Assembly (NCBI GenBank): GCA_000002435.2
Contig: CM018793.1
Reading direction: 5' to 3' (one strand)
From: Giardia intestinalis
Lineage: Eukaryota
Length of the DNA: 64,000 nucleotides
Shown here piece by piece: positions 1,419-46,236 of this stretch; position 1 is the first letter of the stretch; every line of letters begins with the position of its first letter. The notes beneath the pieces were generated by a model that was not told the origin of the DNA, searched no databases, and worked only from the letters and a program-made list of their open reading frames with translations. The position numbers and the translations under genes were made by a program.

Positions 1419-3476
1419 ATGATTGACGGATCTCCGGACAAGTTGTACAAGAGGCTCGAGGAACTGGGGAGAGGATCATTTGGAAAGGTATATAAGGTCC
1501 AACATCGGAGAACAGGAGAGTTCTATGCTTTGAAGCTTGTTGCGTATCATGGAATGAGCACCAAACTGTACGACATGCAGACGTCAGAAATAGAGCTTCT
1601 TACATCTGTTCATCACCCCGGGATTATAAACTATCATGAAGCATACGATGATCACGAAAATAAGGAGTTCGGTATCATAATGGACATTTTCACCAAGGGT
1701 GACCTACACAGCTACATTAACAAAAAGAGGGTCACTAAGGCATCTGTTTCAGAGCAAAGCATATGGGCGATTCTTTCACAACTTGCCTATGCCCTGTCGT
1801 ACTGCCACAGCAAGACACGTGCCCAGGGGATCGAGTTTGGGGTTGTAATTCATCGAGACATAAAGCCTGAAAACATCCTGATCAGCGATGATGGCAGAGT
1901 TGTTTTCTCGGATTTCGGTATCTGCAGGGCTCTCGAAGAGCGTAAGGCAACGGGAACAATCGTGGGGACCGTCGCATATCTTGCCCCCGAGATTGCTAGC
2001 ATGAAATCCTACGATGAAAAGGTTGATATTTGGTCACTCGGATGCACCATCTACGAGCTGTGTACGAAGACATTGCTCTTTCGTGCCAAGAACATATCTG
2101 ACTTGGCGAACAAACACAAGGAATTCAGTTCTGAGTCCCTAATCATTCAACATCACGGATATAGCGAGCAGCTAGAGACAGTGCTCAAAGCAATGCTTCA
2201 AGTGGATCCCACTGTTCGCATATCTGCTGCAGAAATCTGTCACATCGATAGAGTGCGCGTGGAGCTCGATAAGTTCAAGCAGATGATGGCCGAGAAGGGG
2301 AAGCCTATACCCCAGGAGGTCCCCGTGCCCAATGCGCCCCAGACCCCCGTGAAGCAGGCGGTTTCAGCTTCGCCCTCGCCGTTCGCGCATCTCAAGTGGA
2401 GCACCAGCAATTCACAACAAGAACAGCGCCGCCTTCCTCAGAGTAGACCAATGAGCCCCCCGCCTGTTGAGGATGTGCGTCCTCGCAAAGTCCCTCCGCA
2501 GAATAATCCATCAATAGATGACCTTATTCTTGCTGTCAGACAGAATAATATCACAGACATCCGAAACCTTTCGAAAACGCTGGCCCGTAAGACAGATAGC
2601 TCTGGCCGGTCAGCATTAATGCACGCTGTTATAATGGACAGAATAGAGGCGGTAAAGATCCTCGCCCCCTTAGAGTCTGGACTGATGGACAAGAGTGGAC
2701 GTACCGCTTTGCACTATGCATGTGCGAAGAAGGAGCCAAATAAGCAAATGCTCTTGCTTCTCGGAGAAGTTGAGGGCCGTGTGGTGAACTCAATTGGAAG
2801 AACATCGCTGATGCTTTTGATAAAGGACGGGCGTAAAGACGTTGCACAGCTCCTGGTAAACAAGTCGTATGGCGTTCAGGATGTGGCAGGCACCACAGCA
2901 CTGATTCTGGCTATACGTTATGGGCAGACAGACATAGCCATGCAACTAGTGCACAAAGAACAGAAGCTTGTGATGAAGAATGGGTGGTCGGCTTTGATGG
3001 AGGCAGCACAACAGGGAAATGTCACCGTGGCAAGAGCACTAAGAAACGCTGAGTTTGGACTCAGGGGCAACATGGAATGGACCGCGCTCATGGTCGCAGC
3101 AGCTCATGGCAGTGACGGGGTCTGTAAGATTCTAATGGACGTCGAAGGAAAGCAGCGCGATACCCTGGGAGAAACAGCACTGATGAAGGCTGCGCGGGCT
3201 GGCAAGTCAAACTGTGCGCAGGTTCTTCTTCGTGCTGAAGGAAAGCTCGTACGGCCGGATGGGAAGAGTGCACTGATGTGCGCTGCAGAGGCCGGCCATA
3301 CAGAGTGCGTTCGTGTACTCTGTGCCACTGAAGCAGGGCTAAGGAAGCAGGATGGCCGCACGGCCCTGAAGTTCGCTCTCGAACGAGGACACACTGAGTG
3401 CGTCGATCTTTTGCGGCCCTACGAAGATGTCACCTCCCCACGACAAGATGTTAACTGTACGGGAAAACGGAAGTAA
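1419..3476 (+). CDS. NEK-family Ser/Thr protein kinase with C-terminal ankyrin repeats
   Basis: GRGSFGKV...ALK (ATP site), HRDIKPENILI, DFG, APE kinase motifs; aa ~370-680 are repeated ankyrin units (TALMxAxxxGxxxxVxxLL). ORF-track start 1413 is GTG; first ATG at 1419. Confidence 0.85.
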   Translation: MIDGSPDKLYKRLEELGRGSFGKVYKVQHRRTGEFYALKLVAYHGMSTKLYDMQTSEIELLTSVHHPGIINYHEAYDDHENKEFGIIMDIFTKGDLHSYINKKRVTKASVSEQSIWAILSQLAYALSYCHSKTRAQGIEFGVVIHRDIKPENILISDDGRVVFSDFGICRALEERKATGTIVGTVAYLAPEIASMKSYDEKVDIWSLGCTIYELCTKTLLFRAKNISDLANKHKEFSSESLIIQHHGYSEQLETVLKAMLQVDPTVRISAAEICHIDRVRVELDKFKQMMAEKGKPIPQEVPVPNAPQTPVKQAVSASPSPFAHLKWSTSNSQQEQRRLPQSRPMSPPPVEDVRPRKVPPQNNPSIDDLILAVRQNNITDIRNLSKTLARKTDSSGRSALMHAVIMDRIEAVKILAPLESGLMDKSGRTALHYACAKKEPNKQMLLLLGEVEGRVVNSIGRTSLMLLIKDGRKDVAQLLVNKSYGVQDVAGTTALILAIRYGQTDIAMQLVHKEQKLVMKNGWSALMEAAQQGNVTVARALRNAEFGLRGNMEWTALMVAAAHGSDGVCKILMDVEGKQRDTLGETALMKAARAGKSNCAQVLLRAEGKLVRPDGKSALMCAAEAGHTECVRVLCATEAGLRKQDGRTALKFALERGHTECVDLLRPYEDVTSPRQDVNCTGKRK

Positions 3477-3478
3477 AC
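3472..3478 (+). promoter_or_regulatory. putative polyadenylation signal AGTAAAC overlapping the TAA stop of the kinase gene
   Basis: Exact match to the Giardia AGT(A/G)AA(C/T) consensus, positioned on the stop codon as is typical. Confidence 0.45.
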
Positions 3479-3616
3479 AACGGCAAAGAGATGTGCCGGC
3501 CTTGGTACAACATACCCACACGCGCCTCAGAAGGGTGCCATTCCATTGTCTACACACCTGACGTGCACATGCAGTTCTAATAATTGTGTGCTGGTATAAG
3601 TCGGCAGTTTAAAAAA

Positions 3617-4540
3617 ATGTTTTCGCCAGTGCTACTCGCAATCGTCGCCGTATCTTGTTCGGCAGACTGCCTATCTGGTGGTAATGCTAATGTTACTAGT
3701 AATAAGGAATTTAATATACAAGTTGGTGGTAGCTCTGCATGCACTACTAATTCATGGATTTACGTTTCTTTCCCTTGCGGGAAGACACTTACTTTCAAAC
3801 AGAAAATTTCAACCTCTCCCACTAGTAGTCCGCTAACTTTTAACTGTAGCCACTTTTATTCGTCTACCAATGATCCCAATTTGCTTTGTGATTTTTATCA
3901 GTGTCGGTCAATTGATGGTCAACCCGCCGTTAAAGCCACTTATAACACTACGCAAAACGCTAAGCTGAAGGCAGGAGAACTTGTTAAAAACGAAGAAAAA
4001 ACTCTCACCCTTAAGATCACGGGGGATCTGACTCCACCTGAGGAGACCGACACCAAGGATAAGAACCTCCTCACTATCGTGATCATCTCTGTGGTCGTGA
4101 TTATCGTCCTTGTCGTCGTCTTCGTTGTGTTCTGCATACTTTGTAAAAAGAAGAGGACGCAGACGAACGCTGACGCCGCGCAGAAGATCGACGCCGCGTA
4201 CAGAGAGCACCCGAAGAACGAAATGCTCATAGACATCGTCAGAACGCAGAAGCGGTATGACGACTCAGAAAACACAGACGAGTTCTACCTAAACATCGGC
4301 GACTCGGGGGCCCTCGCCGTCGCTTCAGACAAGATCAAAACTAGGGGCCCCAAGCATGGAGGGTCTTCCCGGTCCAAGGCCAATAGGTCGCACACTATAG
4401 AGAGCGAAGACGGTAGCTTTATGATATCTGACGGAAAGATGCGTAGCTCATCTCGAGCTTCCTTCCACGATGAAAGCTTTACCATAAACCGCGTCCTCAA
4501 GCCGGCGACGGGGAACCTTGACCTTACAGACAGTGACTAG
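3617..4540 (+). CDS. hypothetical type I membrane protein (signal peptide, Cys-containing ectodomain, one TM, cytoplasmic tail)
   Basis: First ATG at 3617 preceded by aaaaaaa; MFSPVLLAIVAVSCSA signal-like; TM LLTIVIISVVVIIVLVVVFVVFCILC followed by KKKRT stop-transfer. Confidence 0.55.
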   Translation: MFSPVLLAIVAVSCSADCLSGGNANVTSNKEFNIQVGGSSACTTNSWIYVSFPCGKTLTFKQKISTSPTSSPLTFNCSHFYSSTNDPNLLCDFYQCRSIDGQPAVKATYNTTQNAKLKAGELVKNEEKTLTLKITGDLTPPEETDTKDKNLLTIVIISVVVIIVLVVVFVVFCILCKKKRTQTNADAAQKIDAAYREHPKNEMLIDIVRTQKRYDDSENTDEFYLNIGDSGALAVASDKIKTRGPKHGGSSRSKANRSHTIESEDGSFMISDGKMRSSSRASFHDESFTINRVLKPATGNLDLTDSD

Positions 4541-4645
4541 CGAGCCCCTGGCGGTTTTTAGCGTATGTACGTTAGCTCCTTAGTGTTGCACTTATCTATA
4601 TGTCTTTGTAAACAAGCGTTCAGAGATAGACTTTAGCCAAAATAA

Positions 4646-5005
4646 ATGCGAGCACTTGGACGTCGCGCTTGGAGGGGCTTCTGCGGGTTTATCGGGGCGT
4701 CTGCGCTGGTACCGGCTGTCTCTTGGCCTGATGTGGACGACTATGTCAAAAAACTACAGGTTATTGAGAACCGCGAGGAGAACTCCATCATGCTGCACAG
4801 CGTCTCCGCAACCCCTCTCCTCAATACATCCAACTATCCAGCGCCCGAAAGTACCGCTCGGGACTCTCAAAGAGGTATACTGACACAATCCTTCGTAGAT
4901 TTTGAAAAGATTTGTAAAGAAATTCCGGCGTTTCTTAAGACAGCGTCCAAAGAAGATGTCTATGAGATGCACACAGTCATTGCAGCCATCAATAGCACAG
5001 CATAA
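4646..5005 (+). CDS. small hypothetical protein (119 aa)
   Basis: ATG preceded by gccaaaataa; no overlap with neighbours; no recognisable domain. Confidence 0.3.
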   Translation: MRALGRRAWRGFCGFIGASALVPAVSWPDVDDYVKKLQVIENREENSIMLHSVSATPLLNTSNYPAPESTARDSQRGILTQSFVDFEKICKEIPAFLKTASKEDVYEMHTVIAAINSTA

Positions 5006-24065: not shown

Positions 24066-27000
24066 TTAGGAGGAAAGAATAACGTTGAAAAACACTCTAT
24101 CTAGTGAGGCCTGCAGCAGAGACCAATCACAAATAACCTTCTTTTGCGTGCGAGCAAGCTTCGCCATTTCAATGAATGCATGTGGAGCAGTCAGCTTATC
24201 GGAAACATCATAAGTGAGCGTTCCTGCAACATTGTTACGCAGCAGCACACTGCTCCCGAAGGTTTCCTCCATAAGTTTGTGGCCCATCTCTTCTAATTCG
24301 TAATTAAGTGACACCCCGTTAACCGTTACACCAGACCCCGGCTTTGAATCATGGGTGACCTCCACCATAATTTGCAGTGCTCCTCCATACCTTTCCTGGA
24401 GGTAAGTGCACTTTCCAATGCACTTTAACAGCCCACGGTCCATGATAGCTATCCGGTTACATAAGGCCTGTGCCTCATCCATAGCGTGTGTGGTGAGCAG
24501 AATGGCGCGATGTGAACGTATCCTCAGAATGATGTTCCAGAGGAGCCTCTTTGACACAGGATCCAGGCCTGTGCTGGGCTCATCTAAGTAAAGGACAGAC
24601 GGCGACCCCGTAAGTGCTATTGCGACAGATAGCCGACGCTTCTGGCCACCGGATAACGATTTGACCTTGCTGTTGGCCTTTTCCACCAGCCCCACAGACT
24701 CTAGAAGTTCATCAATATGAGTTTTCTCGTCTTCCTTGGCAATGTTCTTTAGACGACAGGAATACTTTAAATGCTGCCTGCACGTGAGAGTAGGGTAAAG
24801 GATGTCAAACTGTGGACAGATGCCTGTAACAGATTGAATGTAAGCCTTATTATAGGGGTCAACTAAGCTTTTGTCCAAAACATACGCCTCGCCGGTCGTC
24901 GCGCGGTGGAGCATCGTGAGGATGTTGATCGTCGTCGTCTTGGCGGCGCCGTTCGGGCCCAGGAGCCCGAGGCACTCGCCCTCTGCGACCGTGAAGGAGA
25001 CGCCCCGGACCGCGTGCTTCTCGGGCGAGAGCCGCGTCGCGGGGTACGTCTTCGTCAGGTCTATCGCGCGGATCAAAACAGGTCTCTCATTAAAGCCTTT
25101 TGTTGCACACTTAGCCCGCTTGCTTTCTGCAGACACGTCGGATTCCGAAATACAGTCTATGTGTGTTGTGCTCTTGATTGTCTTCAAATGGTCTATTGAC
25201 ATCGCATTTGAAGTAACCTGTGTACTGGATTCGAATCTACCACCATTAGGAGACAAAGGATCCACTGCAGTGCTCAATAAATGACCCGGAACGTGCTCTT
25301 CCTTACTGCGCTCTGACTCAGGAATGTATGGCTTAAAGTCTGTTGAGTCCATGAGGCTAATGTGGGTGTTTCTGCGCTGAGAACAGCACATACGGTCTGG
25401 ATGCACAAGTGCCCATGTGACCGCTTTACAGATGGACCCTGTTGTGATGTGCTTCGTCCTTCTGCCACGTAGCTTGTCCACCTTATTGACCACCGGAAGA
25501 AGGAAAAAGAGCCAGTGGTTTGGTATTCCCGTTTTCTTTGGCATTACCAGATCAATGTACATAGAAAGCAGTGCCATAAGGACCGTGGAAATAACGCTCA
25601 AAATTAGTGAAATGGAAACAGACTGACCCACATATGCCCGCGACAGCAGCGAGTCATAAACGTAAAAGCGAAGATCTGTAATGTGTAAGTAAAGAGAATC
25701 AGTTTGAAGAATCGCCAAGCTCTGCAGCTGTGAATGTACACTGATTGGCCCAAAGAAGGGAATGAGAGCAAACCAAGGGCTAATGCTCCTGTCAATTATC
25801 GTTGTTGAGGCGAAGTTGGCAGTACCAAGAAAGCCTCCGACAGCGTATCCGAATGCTATAACGACGGCCAGAAGAGCGGCAATGCGCCCACTTTCAAAGA
25901 AGGCAGCAATGAATGCACTGAAGATAGCGACGTTAGCAGAAAAAAGCAAAAACATCGGCAGCCAAGCCGCAAAGGTGTTCATACGTATCCCATTCAGATC
26001 TCCCGCATAGCACATAATCACAAGAAGCACAGCTACGCAGAAGCTTAGAATAAAATTATAGGTAAAGTCGGCTAACCACCTATTCGTGTATCTCTGGCCC
26101 ATCATGCTGTGTAAATGAACCATTCCGCTGGACTTCTCCTCAACAAGAGCAAATATCATCAACGGGCTCACAATGAACATTAGCAAAGGGATAACCAGGC
26201 CCAGGAGCAGCGGGGTCATCCCATCGGGGCCAAGAAAATCACCTGTCGAACGTCGCCAGAACGGGGCGTTCTTTCCTATGATAAGAGGGCCGTCGACCTC
26301 AACACTCCCGGTTGCCGACGTAGACACTCCATAAATCTGATTGACCATATTTCTAAGGCAGAGGTGAAAGTGCAAAACTTGAATTTCAAGCAGACGATCG
26401 TGATCCGTCTGATCAATGTAGTAGGCCTGCATCTTGCTGTAGAAGAAGGTATCATATGAGTAATCAATGCTAAGCACATCTCCGTCGGATTCTCGAGCAA
26501 TGCGAATGGGTGAGGGGCTTACTGCCTGACCAAAGCGAATACCAAAAGATGGAATCTCGTTGACCTTTATACCAACGATCCCGTCGTTGTAATAAATAGG
26601 GTTACTCGTATTAGAGACCGCATCTCTGTACAGCTCAGAGGTCCTCTTGGCGTGGTAGAAGAGCTTGTCCTCGTTTGAAACGCCCGCAGCTGTGATGTTA
26701 TCAGGAGCCTTGCTGTATTCAACACCCGGGCCAGTGAAGTTCATATATAAGTAATTGTCGTAGTATGAAGTAAAGTTTGTGTAATATGGAACTTTAGCTT
26801 TTAGAGCTAAGTAATTCTGGGTACTATCGCTAACAAGCTCATGAGCAGGATTGGTACGTATAACAGACGTGGTCCCATATTCTGTGCGGAGCGCCAAGCC
26901 TAGGGAAATATCATTGAACGGTTTTTCCAAAGCACTCAAATAGCCCTTGGACTGCCCAAGGGTATTACTATACAAAAGAGACCCCAAGTCGAAGTGCGAA

Positions 27001-27323
27001 AGGTAGTGGATATTAAATATGTTTGTAGGAGCAAGGCTGGGATAGGGGTTCGATATCCAATTACCGACAACAATATTGGAGTCGTTCGAAGAGTCTCCTG
27101 AAGGACCTCCCGTCACATCATATTTAAGAGAAGCTGTGGAGACGCTATTCAGATAGTACCTATGCAGCAGTATTATGCACAGCATCAGTACGAAAGTCAG
27201 AACCAAGACGCTGAGAAATCCCCCGAAGGAGGCGCAGAAGAGCGTCCAGTTTTTAAGAAAGACTCCCAACCACTGTCTGTTGCGTCTGGATTTGGCCAGT
27301 GGCGAGTCCTCTCCCAAGACCAT
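24066..27323 (-). CDS. ABC transporter, ABCA-like half transporter (TMD with large extracytoplasmic loop + one NBD)
   Basis: Walker A GPNGAAKTT, signature LSGGQKRRLSVAIAL, Walker B VLYLDEPSTGLD, H-loop TTHAMDEA; TM1 then about 300-aa loop then TM2-6. ORF-track start 27368 is TTG; first ATG at 27321-27323. Confidence 0.85.
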   Translation of the reverse strand: MVLGEDSPLAKSRRNRQWLGVFLKNWTLFCASFGGFLSVLVLTFVLMLCIILLHRYYLNSVSTASLKYDVTGGPSGDSSNDSNIVVGNWISNPYPSLAPTNIFNIHYLSHFDLGSLLYSNTLGQSKGYLSALEKPFNDISLGLALRTEYGTTSVIRTNPAHELVSDSTQNYLALKAKVPYYTNFTSYYDNYLYMNFTGPGVEYSKAPDNITAAGVSNEDKLFYHAKRTSELYRDAVSNTSNPIYYNDGIVGIKVNEIPSFGIRFGQAVSPSPIRIARESDGDVLSIDYSYDTFFYSKMQAYYIDQTDHDRLLEIQVLHFHLCLRNMVNQIYGVSTSATGSVEVDGPLIIGKNAPFWRRSTGDFLGPDGMTPLLLGLVIPLLMFIVSPLMIFALVEEKSSGMVHLHSMMGQRYTNRWLADFTYNFILSFCVAVLLVIMCYAGDLNGIRMNTFAAWLPMFLLFSANVAIFSAFIAAFFESGRIAALLAVVIAFGYAVGGFLGTANFASTTIIDRSISPWFALIPFFGPISVHSQLQSLAILQTDSLYLHITDLRFYVYDSLLSRAYVGQSVSISLILSVISTVLMALLSMYIDLVMPKKTGIPNHWLFFLLPVVNKVDKLRGRRTKHITTGSICKAVTWALVHPDRMCCSQRRNTHISLMDSTDFKPYIPESERSKEEHVPGHLLSTAVDPLSPNGGRFESSTQVTSNAMSIDHLKTIKSTTHIDCISESDVSAESKRAKCATKGFNERPVLIRAIDLTKTYPATRLSPEKHAVRGVSFTVAEGECLGLLGPNGAAKTTTINILTMLHRATTGEAYVLDKSLVDPYNKAYIQSVTGICPQFDILYPTLTCRQHLKYSCRLKNIAKEDEKTHIDELLESVGLVEKANSKVKSLSGGQKRRLSVAIALTGSPSVLYLDEPSTGLDPVSKRLLWNIILRIRSHRAILLTTHAMDEAQALCNRIAIMDRGLLKCIGKCTYLQERYGGALQIMVEVTHDSKPGSGVTVNGVSLNYELEEMGHKLMEETFGSSVLLRNNVAGTLTYDVSDKLTAPHAFIEMAKLARTQKKVICDWSLLQASLDRVFFNVILSS
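24883..25077. repeat. 195-bp perfect inverted repeat, copy 1 (Walker-A region of ABCA gene at 24066-27323); partner at 45156-45350
   Basis: Reverse complement of 45156-45350 is identical base for base; flanks diverge immediately on both sides. Confidence 0.9.
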
Positions 27324-32199: not shown

Positions 32200-32329
32200 A
32201 CTGGTGCCTTGTACCGCATCGTGACGATGTCCGCATGCTGAGGGGTGCGGGTGTGGCGCGCGGTGTCCGGTCGAGGCGGAGTTCTCGCACACATACAGTA
32301 TACACGACTTCCCTATAACTAACACGCAG
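32200..32329 (+). promoter_or_regulatory. 3' half of a split intron preceding the HSP90 C-terminal exon: branch/acceptor motif ACTAACACGCAG at 32318-32329 (upstream extent uncertain)
   Basis: Giardia intron 3' consensus (A/C)CT(A/G)ACACACAG with one deviation, ending in AG exactly where the HSP90 reading frame resumes mid-codon; GC-rich stretch gtgcgggtgtggcgcgcggtgtccggtcgaggcggag upstream could pair with the partner intron half. Confidence 0.6.
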
Positions 32330-33404
32330 GTTTATCACAGACGAATGTACAGATATTGTTCCCGACTGGCTCACGTTCCTCAAGGGCGTGGTCGACTGCG
32401 ACGATCTTCCGCTGAACATCTCCCGTGAGATGCTCCAGAAGAATCGCATCGTCAACACAATCCGCAAGAACCTCATCAACAAGGCTCTCAAGCTCTTCAA
32501 GGACCTCGAGGATGACAAGGACAAGTATGAGACGTTCCTCAAGCAGTTTGGAAAGTCCATCAAGCTCGGTATCCACGAGGACAGCGAGAACCGTGGCAAG
32601 CTCGCCAAGCTTCTGCGCTACTACAGTACAAAGTCCAAGGACAAGCGCACGTCCCTCGACGATTACGTCACCCGCATGCCCGAAAACCAGAAGTCGATCT
32701 ACTACATCACAGGCGACTCTCTCGAGAACCTGAAGGAGTCTCCGTTCCTCGAGAGGTTTAACAAGAAGGGCATAGAGGTTCTGCTTATGGACGAGGCCAT
32801 CGACGAGTATATGACCTCCTCGCTCAAGGAGTTTGAGGGTAAGCAGTTGAAGTGCATAACCAAGGACGGCATCGACCTTGAGCTCACGGAAGACGAGAAG
32901 AAGGAGCAGGAGGAGAAGAAGGAGCGCTTCGCAAAGCTCTGCAAGTACATGAAGGAGGTCCTTGGCGATAAGGTCGAGGGAGTCCGCGTCGGGTGTGATC
33001 GCCTTGTAGACACCCCGTGCATCCTCGTCACCGCAGAGTGGGGCTGGACTGCCACGATGAGCAAGATCATGAAGCACCAGGCGCTGAGAGACGACACTCT
33101 GGGCAGCGTGATGGCCGGAAAGAAGACCCTGGAGCTTAACCCCGACAGCAGCATCATCCAGAATCTCGCCTCTAAGCTCGACGACGACGCAGAGAACCTC
33201 TATGTCAAGGACATCACAACCCTTCTTTTCGAGACGGCCCTTATCCAGAGCGGGTTCGACATTGAGGACACCGCAACCTTTGCCAAGCGCATTCACGCCA
33301 TGGTCCGTGTCAGCCTGGGAGACGACACCGCCGCTGCCCCTGCTAGCGACCTTCCTGCCCTTGAGGAGTGCCATGATGAGGAGGACGTTGACGAAGTTGA
33401 CTGA
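32330..33404 (+). CDS. HSP90: HSP90 C-terminal exon (HspC): middle-domain end + C-terminal dimerisation domain ending MEEVD-like (DEEDVDEVD); N-terminal half not in window
   Basis: [42 protein letters not shown] aligns to human ...[38 protein letters not shown]; coding starts in phase 1 right after the acceptor AG with no in-frame ATG; extremely GC3-rich. Confidence 0.9.
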
Positions 33405-42894: not shown

Positions 42895-45800
42895 ATGGTT
42901 GCCAATTCCCTTGATAGGGGTTTTGTCCTTCGGCGCGCGAGGCCCAGAAGACAATTTGTTGGCGTTTTTTGCAAGAACATCGACCTTCTCCAGCGGTCAT
43001 GGTACGGATTGGTGATAGTGGTGGGCATTGTTGCCATCCTCATGGGTGTTATCATTAAGGTACACTACTTCTACCTGGCTCAGGACAAGACAGCTGTGGA
43101 CCCTAATGCTCAGATAGTAACTGAAAACCATGATCTTATACCATCGGCCTCGGCTCACAAAGATGCAAACTATAACTTCCTGTTTTTGAAGAGAGAAGGG
43201 GTGGACCTGGGATCTCTTTCTTATGACTCGACGGTGGAGAACACAGGGTATCTGGGGTTTATGGGGATGAAGTATCCTGTTGGCTATGAGTATAAGGCTG
43301 GTCTGAGGACAGTTTCTGACTCTGTATGGGTTGACGGGCTCTACCGGATTATCACGTATCCCTACTTCACGGATATGAAGAGGTACCTCAGTAACTATGA
43401 CTACGATCGCACAGACCTGTATCCTGGCGGCGCCGCAGATATTGACGTCTCTGCAACCCAAGCAGCAGACCAGGTGTTTGTTGAAGCGATTCACTCCTCA
43501 CCGCTGCCTATAACCGTACAACCTGGCAGCGTGGTTAGCACAGATTATGATGACAAGCGGATTGATCATTTGCCAGAGACGATTCGGCGCCTCTTCACTC
43601 ATGCGACGCGGACTGCCGAAGCTTACCGAGCAAATAACATGGTGAATGAGCAGGTTAAAAAGGGTTTTCTCATGCACGATATACCTCTACTTGCTGTGGA
43701 TATTAGCAAGCAGCCAGACCGTCCAATGCAGGTCACAGGAACAAACGCTGCGGATACCGTGGTCACTATAAGTTCAGGCTATAGTGTGTATGGATACTAT
43801 AAAAAGCAGACGTTTTTTGTCAGTCAAAATGACTATCTGCGGCTTCTGAATCTGCAGTACAACATGTTCAGCATCAATATTCGTGCCCTCATCAATCAGA
43901 TATACTCTATCCCCACCCCCTCCTTACCCGCAGAAAACATATATGCACCTCTTTACGCTCCCGTTATAGATGGGAACTATAAGCAGTTCTGGCGCAACGT
44001 AAATGCAAATGACATAGGGCCTGATATGTACACCCCAATGTACATGTGCTTCATTCTTCCGTTTTGCTTCTTCATTCTCACGCCCCTTTTCTCGTACCGG
44101 CTGTCGCAAGAGAAGGGCGAGGGGATAAACCATCTGCACTACATGATGGGACTTCGGTACATATACCGGTGGCTTGGCGACTTTGTTTATCAGTTAGTGA
44201 TCACGTCTATAGTTGCTCTCATCTGCGTCTTCTCGTCATTGTTCGGGGGCCTAAATGGTCTAAAGCTCAATACTCCCGTAGCGTGGGTCCCAACCATTCT
44301 CCTCACTATTCTCATGATTCCCGTTTTTTCTGCCTTTGTGGCTGCCTTCTTTGAGACGGGAAGAAACTCTTCCCTAGTCTGTGTGACACTTGCAATTGTC
44401 GTGTCTGTTATTGGCTTACTTTATGGGATAAAGTACTCTGATTTGACGATAATTGACCGCAGTATTAACAAGTGGTATGCGCTCATCCCCGTCTTTGGTC
44501 CTGTAAGTATACTGACGCAGCTCCAAGCCCTCGCCATGCTTCAGACGGATACCCTCTACCTCGCCGCGCATCATCTTCGGTTCAGCAGGAGGGGGGACCT
44601 ATCACCGGATTTTGTTGGTGAATCGGTGCTCTGGTCGCTGATATTCACCGTCATATCCACTCTGGTGATGCTGGTTGTAGGTATGTATATTGATCTTGTG
44701 ATGCCAAAACGCAAGGGGATACCTAACCACTGGCTATTTTTCCTATTTCCAATCGTGTATAAAGCCGATAAGATCCGTAGGAAGTATACAAAGCACTTGA
44801 CTACGCGCGTCATTCTGAAATCAGTTATCTGGGCCATCTTTCATCCAGACCTAATGTGCCGAAAGGTGTCTAACGAGCCAGGTCTTCTTCAGTCATCGTC
44901 TATGTCTTGGAAAGGGGCCCAGTCTCCTTGTGAGCTGTCCAAGTTAACCAAGCAGAATTACATGGACCAGAATTGCACGGACGCTTCCACTCTAGACTTA
45001 CCCCACGATTGCTCCGCAGATGGAGACGAAAGGTACTTCGACATTGACACTGGTAAGCATATTGGTGGCTTAAAGAGACCCGTCGACTCGGACGTCATTC
45101 AGGAGCACATAGCCGCTTGTGAGGGCTTTTCTCAATACAACAAAGAACGTGTTCCTTTGATCCGCGCGATAGACCTGACGAAGACGTACCCCGCGACGCG
45201 GCTCTCGCCCGAGAAGCACGCGGTCCGGGGCGTCTCCTTCACGGTCGCAGAGGGCGAGTGCCTCGGGCTCCTGGGCCCGAACGGCGCCGCCAAGACGACG
45301 ACGATCAACATCCTCACGATGCTCCACCGCGCGACGACCGGCGAGGCGTACATAAATGGTCTAGATCTCACAGATCCCGATATGAAGGCATCCATCCAGA
45401 ACATCACGGGTATATGCCCACAGTTTGATATTCAGTACCCTACCCTCACGTGTAGACAGCATCTTAACTACTTTTGTCGTCTAAAAAGGATACACAGGTC
45501 TCAGGAGAAACAGCATGTAAGCGATCTTCTCAAAGCCGTTGGATTGGCCGAGAAGGCGAATACGCCGTCTAAGTCTTTATCTGGTGGCATGCGCCGTCGG
45601 CTATCTGTTGCGATAGCACTTACGGGGTCGCCGTCTGTCCTTTATTTGGACGAACCAAGCACAGGGTTGGACCCAGAATCTAAGCGGCAGCTCTGGAACG
45701 TCATTCTTCGTGTTCGCTCAAACCGTGCCATTCTGCTCACCACACATGCCATGGATGAGGCGGAGGCGCTCTGCAACCGCATTTCTATAATGGTTGCTGG

Positions 45801-46236
45801 GCAGCTCAAGTGCATCGGCACATGTTCTTATCTTCAGCAGAAGTTTGGAAATGGCTATGAGCTCGTGTTTACCGTTAAGAACGATTTCGATTTTTCAAAG
45901 AACTCTAAGATAGATCAGACAGAACATCTCCTTCATGGCCTGGACTCTGAAGGAAACTCTCTGCCAGAGACAATGGCTATCGGAGAGTTGACCCTTAACA
46001 CATCGCGGGAAGTCTGTGGCCATTTACTGGTCAACAGCTACATCTCTAGTAGCTTGCAGCTTATTCGCGTTTTCAGCGGCAGACTTACTTATAAGCTTCC
46101 CGATAGCATCCCTATTTCTCAGATTTTCATGGCCATCGATCAGCTTATTCAGATGAAACCCGGCGTCATCACAGACTGGTGCTTGTCGCGCACGAGTTTG
46201 GACGACGTCTTCTTCAAAGTAGTTCTCACACTTTAA
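42895..46236 (+). CDS. ABC transporter, ABCA-like half transporter, paralog of 24066-27323
   Basis: Same architecture; Walker A GPNGAAKTT, LSGGMRRRLSVAIAL, VLYLDEPSTGLD; about 60-65% aa identity to the paralog in the NBD outside the identical tract. Confidence 0.85.
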   Translation: MVANSLDRGFVLRRARPRRQFVGVFCKNIDLLQRSWYGLVIVVGIVAILMGVIIKVHYFYLAQDKTAVDPNAQIVTENHDLIPSASAHKDANYNFLFLKREGVDLGSLSYDSTVENTGYLGFMGMKYPVGYEYKAGLRTVSDSVWVDGLYRIITYPYFTDMKRYLSNYDYDRTDLYPGGAADIDVSATQAADQVFVEAIHSSPLPITVQPGSVVSTDYDDKRIDHLPETIRRLFTHATRTAEAYRANNMVNEQVKKGFLMHDIPLLAVDISKQPDRPMQVTGTNAADTVVTISSGYSVYGYYKKQTFFVSQNDYLRLLNLQYNMFSINIRALINQIYSIPTPSLPAENIYAPLYAPVIDGNYKQFWRNVNANDIGPDMYTPMYMCFILPFCFFILTPLFSYRLSQEKGEGINHLHYMMGLRYIYRWLGDFVYQLVITSIVALICVFSSLFGGLNGLKLNTPVAWVPTILLTILMIPVFSAFVAAFFETGRNSSLVCVTLAIVVSVIGLLYGIKYSDLTIIDRSINKWYALIPVFGPVSILTQLQALAMLQTDTLYLAAHHLRFSRRGDLSPDFVGESVLWSLIFTVISTLVMLVVGMYIDLVMPKRKGIPNHWLFFLFPIVYKADKIRRKYTKHLTTRVILKSVIWAIFHPDLMCRKVSNEPGLLQSSSMSWKGAQSPCELSKLTKQNYMDQNCTDASTLDLPHDCSADGDERYFDIDTGKHIGGLKRPVDSDVIQEHIAACEGFSQYNKERVPLIRAIDLTKTYPATRLSPEKHAVRGVSFTVAEGECLGLLGPNGAAKTTTINILTMLHRATTGEAYINGLDLTDPDMKASIQNITGICPQFDIQYPTLTCRQHLNYFCRLKRIHRSQEKQHVSDLLKAVGLAEKANTPSKSLSGGMRRRLSVAIALTGSPSVLYLDEPSTGLDPESKRQLWNVILRVRSNRAILLTTHAMDEAEALCNRISIMVAGQLKCIGTCSYLQQKFGNGYELVFTVKNDFDFSKNSKIDQTEHLLHGLDSEGNSLPETMAIGELTLNTSREVCGHLLVNSYISSSLQLIRVFSGRLTYKLPDSIPISQIFMAIDQLIQMKPGVITDWCLSRTSLDDVFFKVVLTL
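45156..45350. repeat. 195-bp perfect inverted repeat, copy 2 (Walker-A region of ABCA gene at 42895-46236); partner at 24883-25077
   Basis: See copy 1. Confidence 0.9.

Follow-up and report, generated by a model that had tools for sequence, protein, structure and literature searches.

The question raised by this locus is how two genes whose silent sites are saturated with differences can share 195 nucleotides without a single mismatch. The genes, here called pA and pB, lie within a 64-kb stretch of contig CM018793.1 (assembly GCA_000002435.2; Giardia duodenalis strain WB, assemblage A1), and "the window" below means the whole of these 64,000 nucleotides. They are transcribed divergently and encode ABCA-like transporters, and the shared tract occupies part of the nucleotide-binding domain (NBD) of each (coordinates in Table 1). 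Judged from the sequences of several Giardia lineages, it is almost certain that gene conversion homogenises the tract. We further consider it probable that concerted evolution has maintained the tract as a long-lived island, and that GC-biased repair has caused its saturation with G and C.

The two tract copies were compared both with a repeat finder and as strings, and one proved to be the exact reverse complement of the other (195/195 nt, 0 mismatches, 20,078 nt apart). This bears out the original prediction, made by a model from the letters of the window alone, as it does the sharp edges that were described there: on both sides the first base beyond the tract is already mismatched, as are about half of the next 14 positions. 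A second inverted pair found in the window (477 nt, 71%) adjoins the tract and corresponds to the remainder of the homologous ATPase domain. The tract encodes the same peptide in both genes, running from the first beta-strands of the NBD through the Walker A loop to the helix that comes next, and this is the longest block of amino acids common to pA and pB.

The tract also stands apart in its base composition. Over the 64 kb, windows of 195 nt have a mean GC content of 0.485 (sd 0.049), and the two tract copies are the top two such windows, with 0.69–0.70 GC as compared to 0.63 for the next. GC content at third codon positions (GC3) is 0.97 in the tract versus 0.45–0.50 in the 40 codons on each side and 0.52–0.55 in the rest of each gene (Fisher p = 5e-15), and no 64-codon window outside the tract exceeds 0.70 in either gene. 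The step in GC3 matches the boundary of identity and conversion to within a codon. The earlier count of 64 out of 65 codons ending in G or C was slightly too high, as 62 of the 64 complete codons do so in WB (the exceptions being ATA and GCA), and the flanks, with the GC3 values given above, do not use mostly A/T-ending codons as had been stated. At 60 of the 63 degenerate codons of the WB tract (60–62 of 63 overall) the synonym used is the one with maximal GC, versus 47–50% elsewhere; this includes the choice of CGS rather than AGR for arginine and of CTS rather than TTR for leucine. Four stop-free antisense frames of 85–137 codons run across the tract copies, at 24871–25284 and 24906–25199 on the plus strand and at 45070–45327 and 45132–45407 on the minus strand. 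These were rejected as genes, having non-ATG starts and extents that are unlike in the two copies, and they are probably a by-product of GC-richness.

Outside the tract the two genes are far apart. In a codon alignment, amino acid identity per 30-codon window ranged from 7 to 67% in the N-terminal and membrane part and from 50 to 97% in the ATPase domain, with overall identities of 37% before and 56% after the tract. The 60–65% originally given for the two NBDs does not describe these values well, although the many synonymous differences reported at the same time were confirmed. Where the two proteins have the same amino acid outside the tract, the codon is identical in only ~40–55% of cases, and the proportion of synonymous differences (Nei-Gojobori pS) is 0.71–0.87, i.e. 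saturated, compared to 0–0.04 inside. Against flanks such as these, the identity of the tract cannot be due to chance.

The comparison was extended to both genes from DH (assemblage A2), P15 (E), GS (B, two assemblies) and BAH15c1 (B), together with five metagenome contigs: one from a B metagenome that carries both genes, and three A2-like and one B-like contig that carry one gene each. Within each strain the two paralogous tracts are 0–2 nt apart. In WB and P15 all four tract copies are the same 195 nt, though the genes differ by 12–14.5% elsewhere. Introgression between assemblages was rejected as the source of this identity between A1 and E because divergence resumes a few nucleotides past both edges. 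At the last alanine codon of the tract, every A2 sequence has GCG>GCA, in pA and in pB, both in DH and in independent metagenome assemblies. Six differences separate A and E from B and are found in both paralogs of all B sequences (TTG/TTA, ATA/ATC, GCA/GCG, CTG/CTC, and GCC/GCG twice), while a B sub-lineage (ENA ERZ28615481 scaffold_940; L002/L016) carries two changes, ACG>GCG (Thr>Ala) and TGC>TGT, each of them in pA as well as in pB. In all, nine lineage-specific substitutions are thus present in both paralogs: six between A/E and B, one in A2 and two in the B sub-lineage. As these lie at three phylogenetic depths, they reflect recurrent interlocus conversion rather than a single recent event. 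The presence of the alanine variant in both genes of scaffold_940 shows that non-synonymous changes are spread by conversion too. Assemblage B is polymorphic for Thr/Ala at this position, residue 8 of the tract (LTKTYPA versus LAKTYPA; scaffold_940, P0076, P0077). Two variants are confined to one copy (ACG>ACA in GS pB, and GCG>GCA in pB of a second B metagenome); these are new mutations that have so far been neither homogenised nor lost. An apparent A/G swap at -10 relative to the tract lies at a position prone to transitions; it was taken for a coincidence affecting one site and left out of the count.

The same signal was seen when informative sites were sorted for the quartet formed by pA and pB of WB and GS. 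Inside the tract, six sites group the sequences by lineage and none by paralog. Outside, 727 sites group them by paralog, 59 by lineage and 44 in the third pattern (tract versus rest, Fisher p = 2.5e-7). These data strongly support the conversion between inverted paralogs that was originally proposed, with the reading amended from a single recent tract to a long-lived island. The accompanying expectation, that recurrent conversion would leave boundaries differing between lineages, was not met by the data: tract boundaries in A, E and B agree within 3–4 nt, identity in B beginning 3 nt later on the left and extending 4 nt further on the right. Recurrence is shown instead by the shared substitutions.

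If crossovers took place within the tract, the 20,078-bp segment separating its copies would be inverted and pA/pB chimeras would arise. Wherever both genes lie on one contig (the window, DH, P15, both GS assemblies, BAH15c1 and one metagenome), their divergent orientation and the intervening gene order are constant, and no chimeric pA/pB genes were seen in the assemblies examined; it follows that only non-crossover outcomes have been fixed. Copy number is likewise constant, with two genes at the locus per assembly examined, so that unequal crossing-over is not the cause of the homogenisation.

Silent sites of the tract have also changed slowly between orthologs. Synonymous divergence (dS) between A1 and E is 0–0.02 in the tract versus 0.57–0.70 in the rest of the genes, and between A and B it is 0.14–0.19 versus ~1.8. 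Divergence at the background synonymous rate in other strains, which had been put forward as one of two observations that would count against conversion, is therefore contradicted, tract dS being far below that of the rest. Neutral concerted evolution, however, does not lower the substitution rate. Since it cannot account for the slowing, the silent sites of the tract are not neutral and a fixation bias is required.

The nature of this bias was examined by splitting third-position differences by type, with expectations taken from the rest of the same genes, and with the provisos that counts are small and that the changes are unpolarised. Between WB and GS, 0–2 differences between G/C and A/T (strong-to-weak, S-to-W) were observed versus 25–32 expected (P ≤ 1e-11), whereas the S-to-S class, that is G-to-C swaps, was at the background rate (3 observed versus 2.2–4.4 expected). 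Both A-ending (W) sites of the assemblage A tract are S in B. For WB and P15 the corresponding values are 0 versus 20–24 for S-to-W and 0 versus 0.6–1.4 for S-to-S. As a share of all silent differences, G-to-C swaps make up 1–6% in the background and half in the tract. With G-to-C swaps at the background rate and S-to-W changes blocked, the force at work keeps GC content and not a specific sequence. If equilibrium is assumed and a background GC3 of 0.4–0.55 is taken for the mutation bias, the scaled bias B would be ~3.5–4, as a simple calculation rather than a fitted model; a bias of that size would suppress S-to-W fixation ~10-fold, close to what is observed.

A second part of the ATPase domain, the signature and Walker B block (region 2 in Table 1), provides an internal comparison. 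Here pA and pB are identical at 28 of 30 amino acids, yet nucleotide identity is only 81% and GC3 is 0.30–0.50, so that protein-level selection clearly does not freeze codons. In the WB/GS quartet, region 2 has eight by-lineage sites versus one of the third pattern, and it contains clustered differences between A1 and A2 whose derived state matches the other paralog. Over a patch of at least 13 bp (24576–24588 in pA and 45645–45657 in pB), the sequence in WB pA is of the type that DH and P15 have in pB, and that in WB pB is of their pA type, with the A2 state confirmed by independent metagenome assemblies. The pattern suggests that a patch was exchanged reciprocally in the A1 lineage.

The origin of the tract could be placed by means of an outgroup. 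An exhaustive, profile-free search of 1.84 billion representative proteins gave as strong full-length matches only the pA-type and pB-type clusters of G. duodenalis, a Dysnectes homolog, and a Giardia-like protein (P0082, 42% identity), the only member of its 90% cluster, encoded at 1665–4910 of a 14.5-kb contig with 55% GC (L015; Logan SRR30592944). Upstream of this gene, as of pA, lie a Dus gene (assigned by position in L015, where no Pfam match is on record for it) and then a small ORF (open reading frame); its downstream neighbours are unlike those of pA. P0082 is 38% identical to pA before the tract and 60% after it, values similar to the 37% and 56% for pA and pB. As the outgroup ortholog and pB lie at similar distances from pA, the duplication that gave rise to the two genes must be old. 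Within the tract, P0082 has 82% amino acid identity, with part of the peptide unchanged, at a GC3 of 0.64 (0.69 for the whole gene) and with many silent differences. The outgroup thus has the peptide with ordinary codons, and we conclude that the peptide is native to this gene lineage, whereas it was within G. duodenalis that the tract became saturated with G and C. No match to the tract peptide was obtained when 185,579 prokaryotic genomes were scanned with a degenerate pattern; this, together with the outgroup peptide, rules out a prokaryotic or otherwise foreign origin of the GC-rich piece. JGI metagenome contigs, scanned at the DNA level with exact as well as degenerate patterns, gave no match and no further Giardia lineages.

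Taken together, these observations would be accounted for by recurrent, non-crossover, intrachromosomal conversion between two inverted old duplicates, confined to 195 bp. Under this model, a new mutation in one copy would be either erased or copied to the other, so that the copies remain identical while each lineage changes slowly. The model adds a fixation bias towards GC, for which the simplest source would be GC-biased repair of heteroduplexes during conversion (GC-biased gene conversion, gBGC); this bias would drive synonymous choices to the G/C maximum, block changes from G/C to A/T and let G-to-C changes drift. The resulting use of the same restricted codon set in both copies would in turn keep the homology needed for more conversion, making the island self-sustaining. 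We infer both this feedback and the attribution of the bias to mismatch repair during conversion rather than to selection.

Two explanations that dispense with conversion can be regarded as refuted. Assemblies are well known to go wrong at identical repeats, and collapsed or cross-assigned reads, which the original prediction itself had raised as a possible flaw, might produce a tract of this kind. The same arrangement with unique flanks, however, is present in independent assemblies (WB, DH, P15, the two of GS, BAH15c1 and the five metagenome contigs), which come from different groups and technologies and each carry lineage-specific variants. Purifying selection acting solely on the protein, or locally infrequent mutation, might be invoked for a tract that holds Walker A, the most conserved part of ABC ATPases, and whose 65 amino acids are given as invariant across G. 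duodenalis assemblages. Yet nine lineage-specific changes in both paralogs of the same strain cannot have arisen independently; synonymous divergence is ordinary in the Walker B block, which is just as conserved; and in the outgroup the peptide is retained but encoded by other codons. The idea that a third GC-rich copy, or some other master sequence elsewhere in the genome, donates the tract to both genes is improbable, even though a single donor would account for the fixed boundaries. The genome sequence scanned for further copies is the 64-kb window, and a query of a word-indexed protein database with the 65-residue tract is uninformative, as it returned four short unrelated ABC fragments, missed the Giardia genes themselves and so says nothing on extra copies. 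Against such a donor, the strong full-length matches in the search of 1.84 billion proteins included from G. duodenalis only the two clusters, plus one outgroup; the tract peptide is native to the gene lineage and encoded by no prokaryotic genome in the scan; and the donor would itself have to be GC-saturated, so that the question would merely be moved.

The more serious competitor, though still an unlikely one, accepts that conversion homogenises the tract and attributes its GC saturation and slow evolution to selection on the nucleotide sequence, for instance for a stable local mRNA structure, for a DNA- or RNA-level function that needs GC, or for a site at which transcripts of the inverted copies pair; conversion would then be permitted in the tract because selection keeps the copies alike. 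Several observations weigh in its favour and against gBGC. Biased conversion and selection for GC-richness yield the same substitution spectrum, and because the tract is wholly coding, it has no neutral non-coding sites by which the two could be told apart; the GC bias proposed in the original prediction is thus borne out by the GC3 of 0.97 and the deficit of S-to-W differences, yet is seen indirectly, as a GC-directed bias inseparable from selection for GC. Two of the three recent variants that have spread to both copies (GCG>GCA in A2 and TGC>TGT in the B sub-lineage) are S-to-W changes; this is allowed at equilibrium but lends the bias no positive support. The tract favours NCG over NCC codons (ACG for 9 of 10 threonines; GCG for 5 of 8 alanines in A and 8 of 8 in B; Fisher p = 8e-5 for the GS tract), and its observed/expected CpG ratio is 1.48 versus 0.83 for the window. 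This preference is not predicted by a plain GC bias and hints at more than that, though a context-dependent repair bias may be responsible. Region 2 exchanges patches without a gain in GC, so that conversion may not always raise GC, or may there occur at a much lower rate, given that 90 nt rather than 195 are involved and that the region is not homogenised. As region 2 is not GC-enriched, the association of conversion with GC may not be a general one, and gBGC cannot be separated from GC selection on this basis. Finally, the sense strand of the tract folds somewhat better than shuffled sequences (z = -2.2). On the other side, G-to-C swaps at the neutral rate mean that no specific sequence is conserved; Rfam gave no match on the tract at E ≤ 1; compensatory change was seen in none of 68 predicted pairs, a result of little power with ~10 variable sites; the antisense fold is unremarkable (z = -1.3); the outgroup ortholog has no GC saturation; and the step in GC coincides with the conversion boundary. 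Translational selection is not supported either, as the gene with the highest GC3 in the window prefers C-ending codons for threonine (ACC > ACG), leucine and arginine, unlike the tract with its ACG codons. It is very doubtful that the tract is a selected nucleotide-level element of both genes for which conversion serves as the means of keeping it identical; such an element could be a 195-nt pairing site for cross-regulation by antisense or read-through RNA via the Giardia Dicer/Argonaute machinery, or a built-in recombination site for swapping ATPase tails. We therefore retain GC-biased conversion as the probable source of the saturation.

The process proposed is a known one. Giardia is a diplomonad and is not known to undergo meiosis. 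GC-biased conversion has reportedly been described in multigene families, namely mammalian histones and Hsp70, in work ascribed to Galtier 2003, Kudla 2004 and Galtier et al. 2001; PMC2720389 cites the Galtier papers as its refs 23 and 25. These families are alike in showing ectopic conversion between paralogs with very high GC3 and with S-to-W changes disfavoured; they consist of many near-identical copies converted over their full length, whereas the Giardia case involves two old paralogs and a short island with in-gene flanks as a control. In sex-chromosome palindromes, intrachromosomal non-crossover conversion likewise keeps inverted copies identical, with arms that are almost contiguous and tens to thousands of kilobases long rather than 195 bp within diverged genes 20 kb apart. 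Such arm-to-arm conversion was reportedly described by Rozen et al. in 2003, and a GC bias is also reported for it. A similar layout is found in the mammalian gene pairs BMP8A/B, DDX19A/B and TUBG1/2, for whose mosaic concerted evolution ongoing, biased conversion was held responsible (Carson and Scherer 2009; PMC2720389). These too are two-copy and part-homogenised, with paralogs closer to each other than to orthologs in the homogenised part, boundaries kept across species, raised GC3 and constant copy number. In comparison with them, the Giardia island is shorter (195 bp), all coding and without introns; its host paralogs are far more diverged outside it (silent sites saturated, 37–56% amino acid identity); and its GC3 is at the ceiling (0.97) where that of the mammalian pairs is merely raised. 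Within G. duodenalis, non-crossover conversion between AI and AII has been inferred (Nat Commun 2025; PMC12669663), also from sequence and also in GC-enriched genes (median 0.541 versus 0.488). Those events took place between lineages or alleles, are kilobases long and are enriched for variant-specific surface protein (VSP) genes, whereas the tract lies between paralogs on one chromosome, measures 195 bp and extends across the species complex. GC-biased conversion has also been floated for the GC-rich ribosomal DNA (rDNA) of Giardia (PMC10123126). A literature search found no paper on this gene pair or on paralog conversion of this kind in Giardia. What is new here is a very short, sharp island at the GC ceiling, between paralogs saturated at silent sites, that persists across the species complex.

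The mechanical ORF of pA reaches 27368 with a TTG start, and the ATG given in Table 1 was confirmed. Both proteins contain one ABC-2 membrane domain (PF12698, ABC2_membrane_3) followed by one ABC ATPase domain (PF00005, ABC_tran), and their top matches outside Giardia are ABCA1/ABCA3/ABCA5-like proteins. Animal ABCA proteins have a full-size layout in which a transmembrane domain and an NBD occur twice; pA and pB, each with a single copy of both domains, do not have this layout, and they are thus half-size ABCA-like transporters on account of their closest relatives and domain layout. Papers on Giardia ABC transporters yielded no inventory that fixes the number of ABCA-like genes.

Table 1. 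Positions of the two paralogs, the shared tract and region 2 within the window.
Feature	Position	Strand	Description
Paralog pA	24066–27323	-	ABCA-like half transporter, 1085 aa; identical to XP_001705484.1 (G. duodenalis WB)
Paralog pB	42895–46236	+	ABCA-like half transporter, 1113 aa; identical to XP_001705469.1 (G. duodenalis WB)
Tract copy 1	24883–25077	-	195-nt conversion island (almost certain) inside pA; exact inverted repeat
Tract copy 2	45156–45350	+	Same 195 nt inside pB
Intervening segment	25078–45155	.	20,078 bp between the tract copies, about ten genes
Region 2 in pA	24552–24641	-	Signature / Walker B block (RRLSVAIALTGSPSVLYLDEPSTGLDP); sporadic short-patch exchange with pB; not GC-enriched
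Region 2 in pB	45592–45681	+	Partner of 24552–24641; apparent swapped patch at 45645–45657

Elsewhere in the window, an ORF at 32388–33404 on the plus strand encodes only the C-terminal two-thirds of Hsp90 (PF00183, positions 182–507 of 518, E = 5.5e-129). This is consistent with reports that the Hsp90 gene of Giardia is split and its products trans-spliced. The other strand carries a longer ORF with an ATG start (32319–33374), which has no Pfam match.

Giardia cells are tetraploid and have two nuclei; whether the organism is sexual is disputed, and assemblage A shows very little heterozygosity. As to how the genome copies are homogenised, GC-biased conversion has so far been no more than a suggestion, made for rDNA (PMC10123126) and for AI/AII exchange (PMC12669663). 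The locus described here is a compact natural experiment in this respect, with an island of 195 bp, in-gene flanks that serve as controls and recurrence at three depths, and its substitution spectrum allows the strength of the bias to be estimated roughly (B ~3.5–4). It is suited to measuring both the rate and the bias of ectopic conversion. It also calls for caution with phylogenies and typing schemes built on pA or pB, and it shows that a conversion island, even a short one, can endure between paralogs that are otherwise saturated at synonymous sites.

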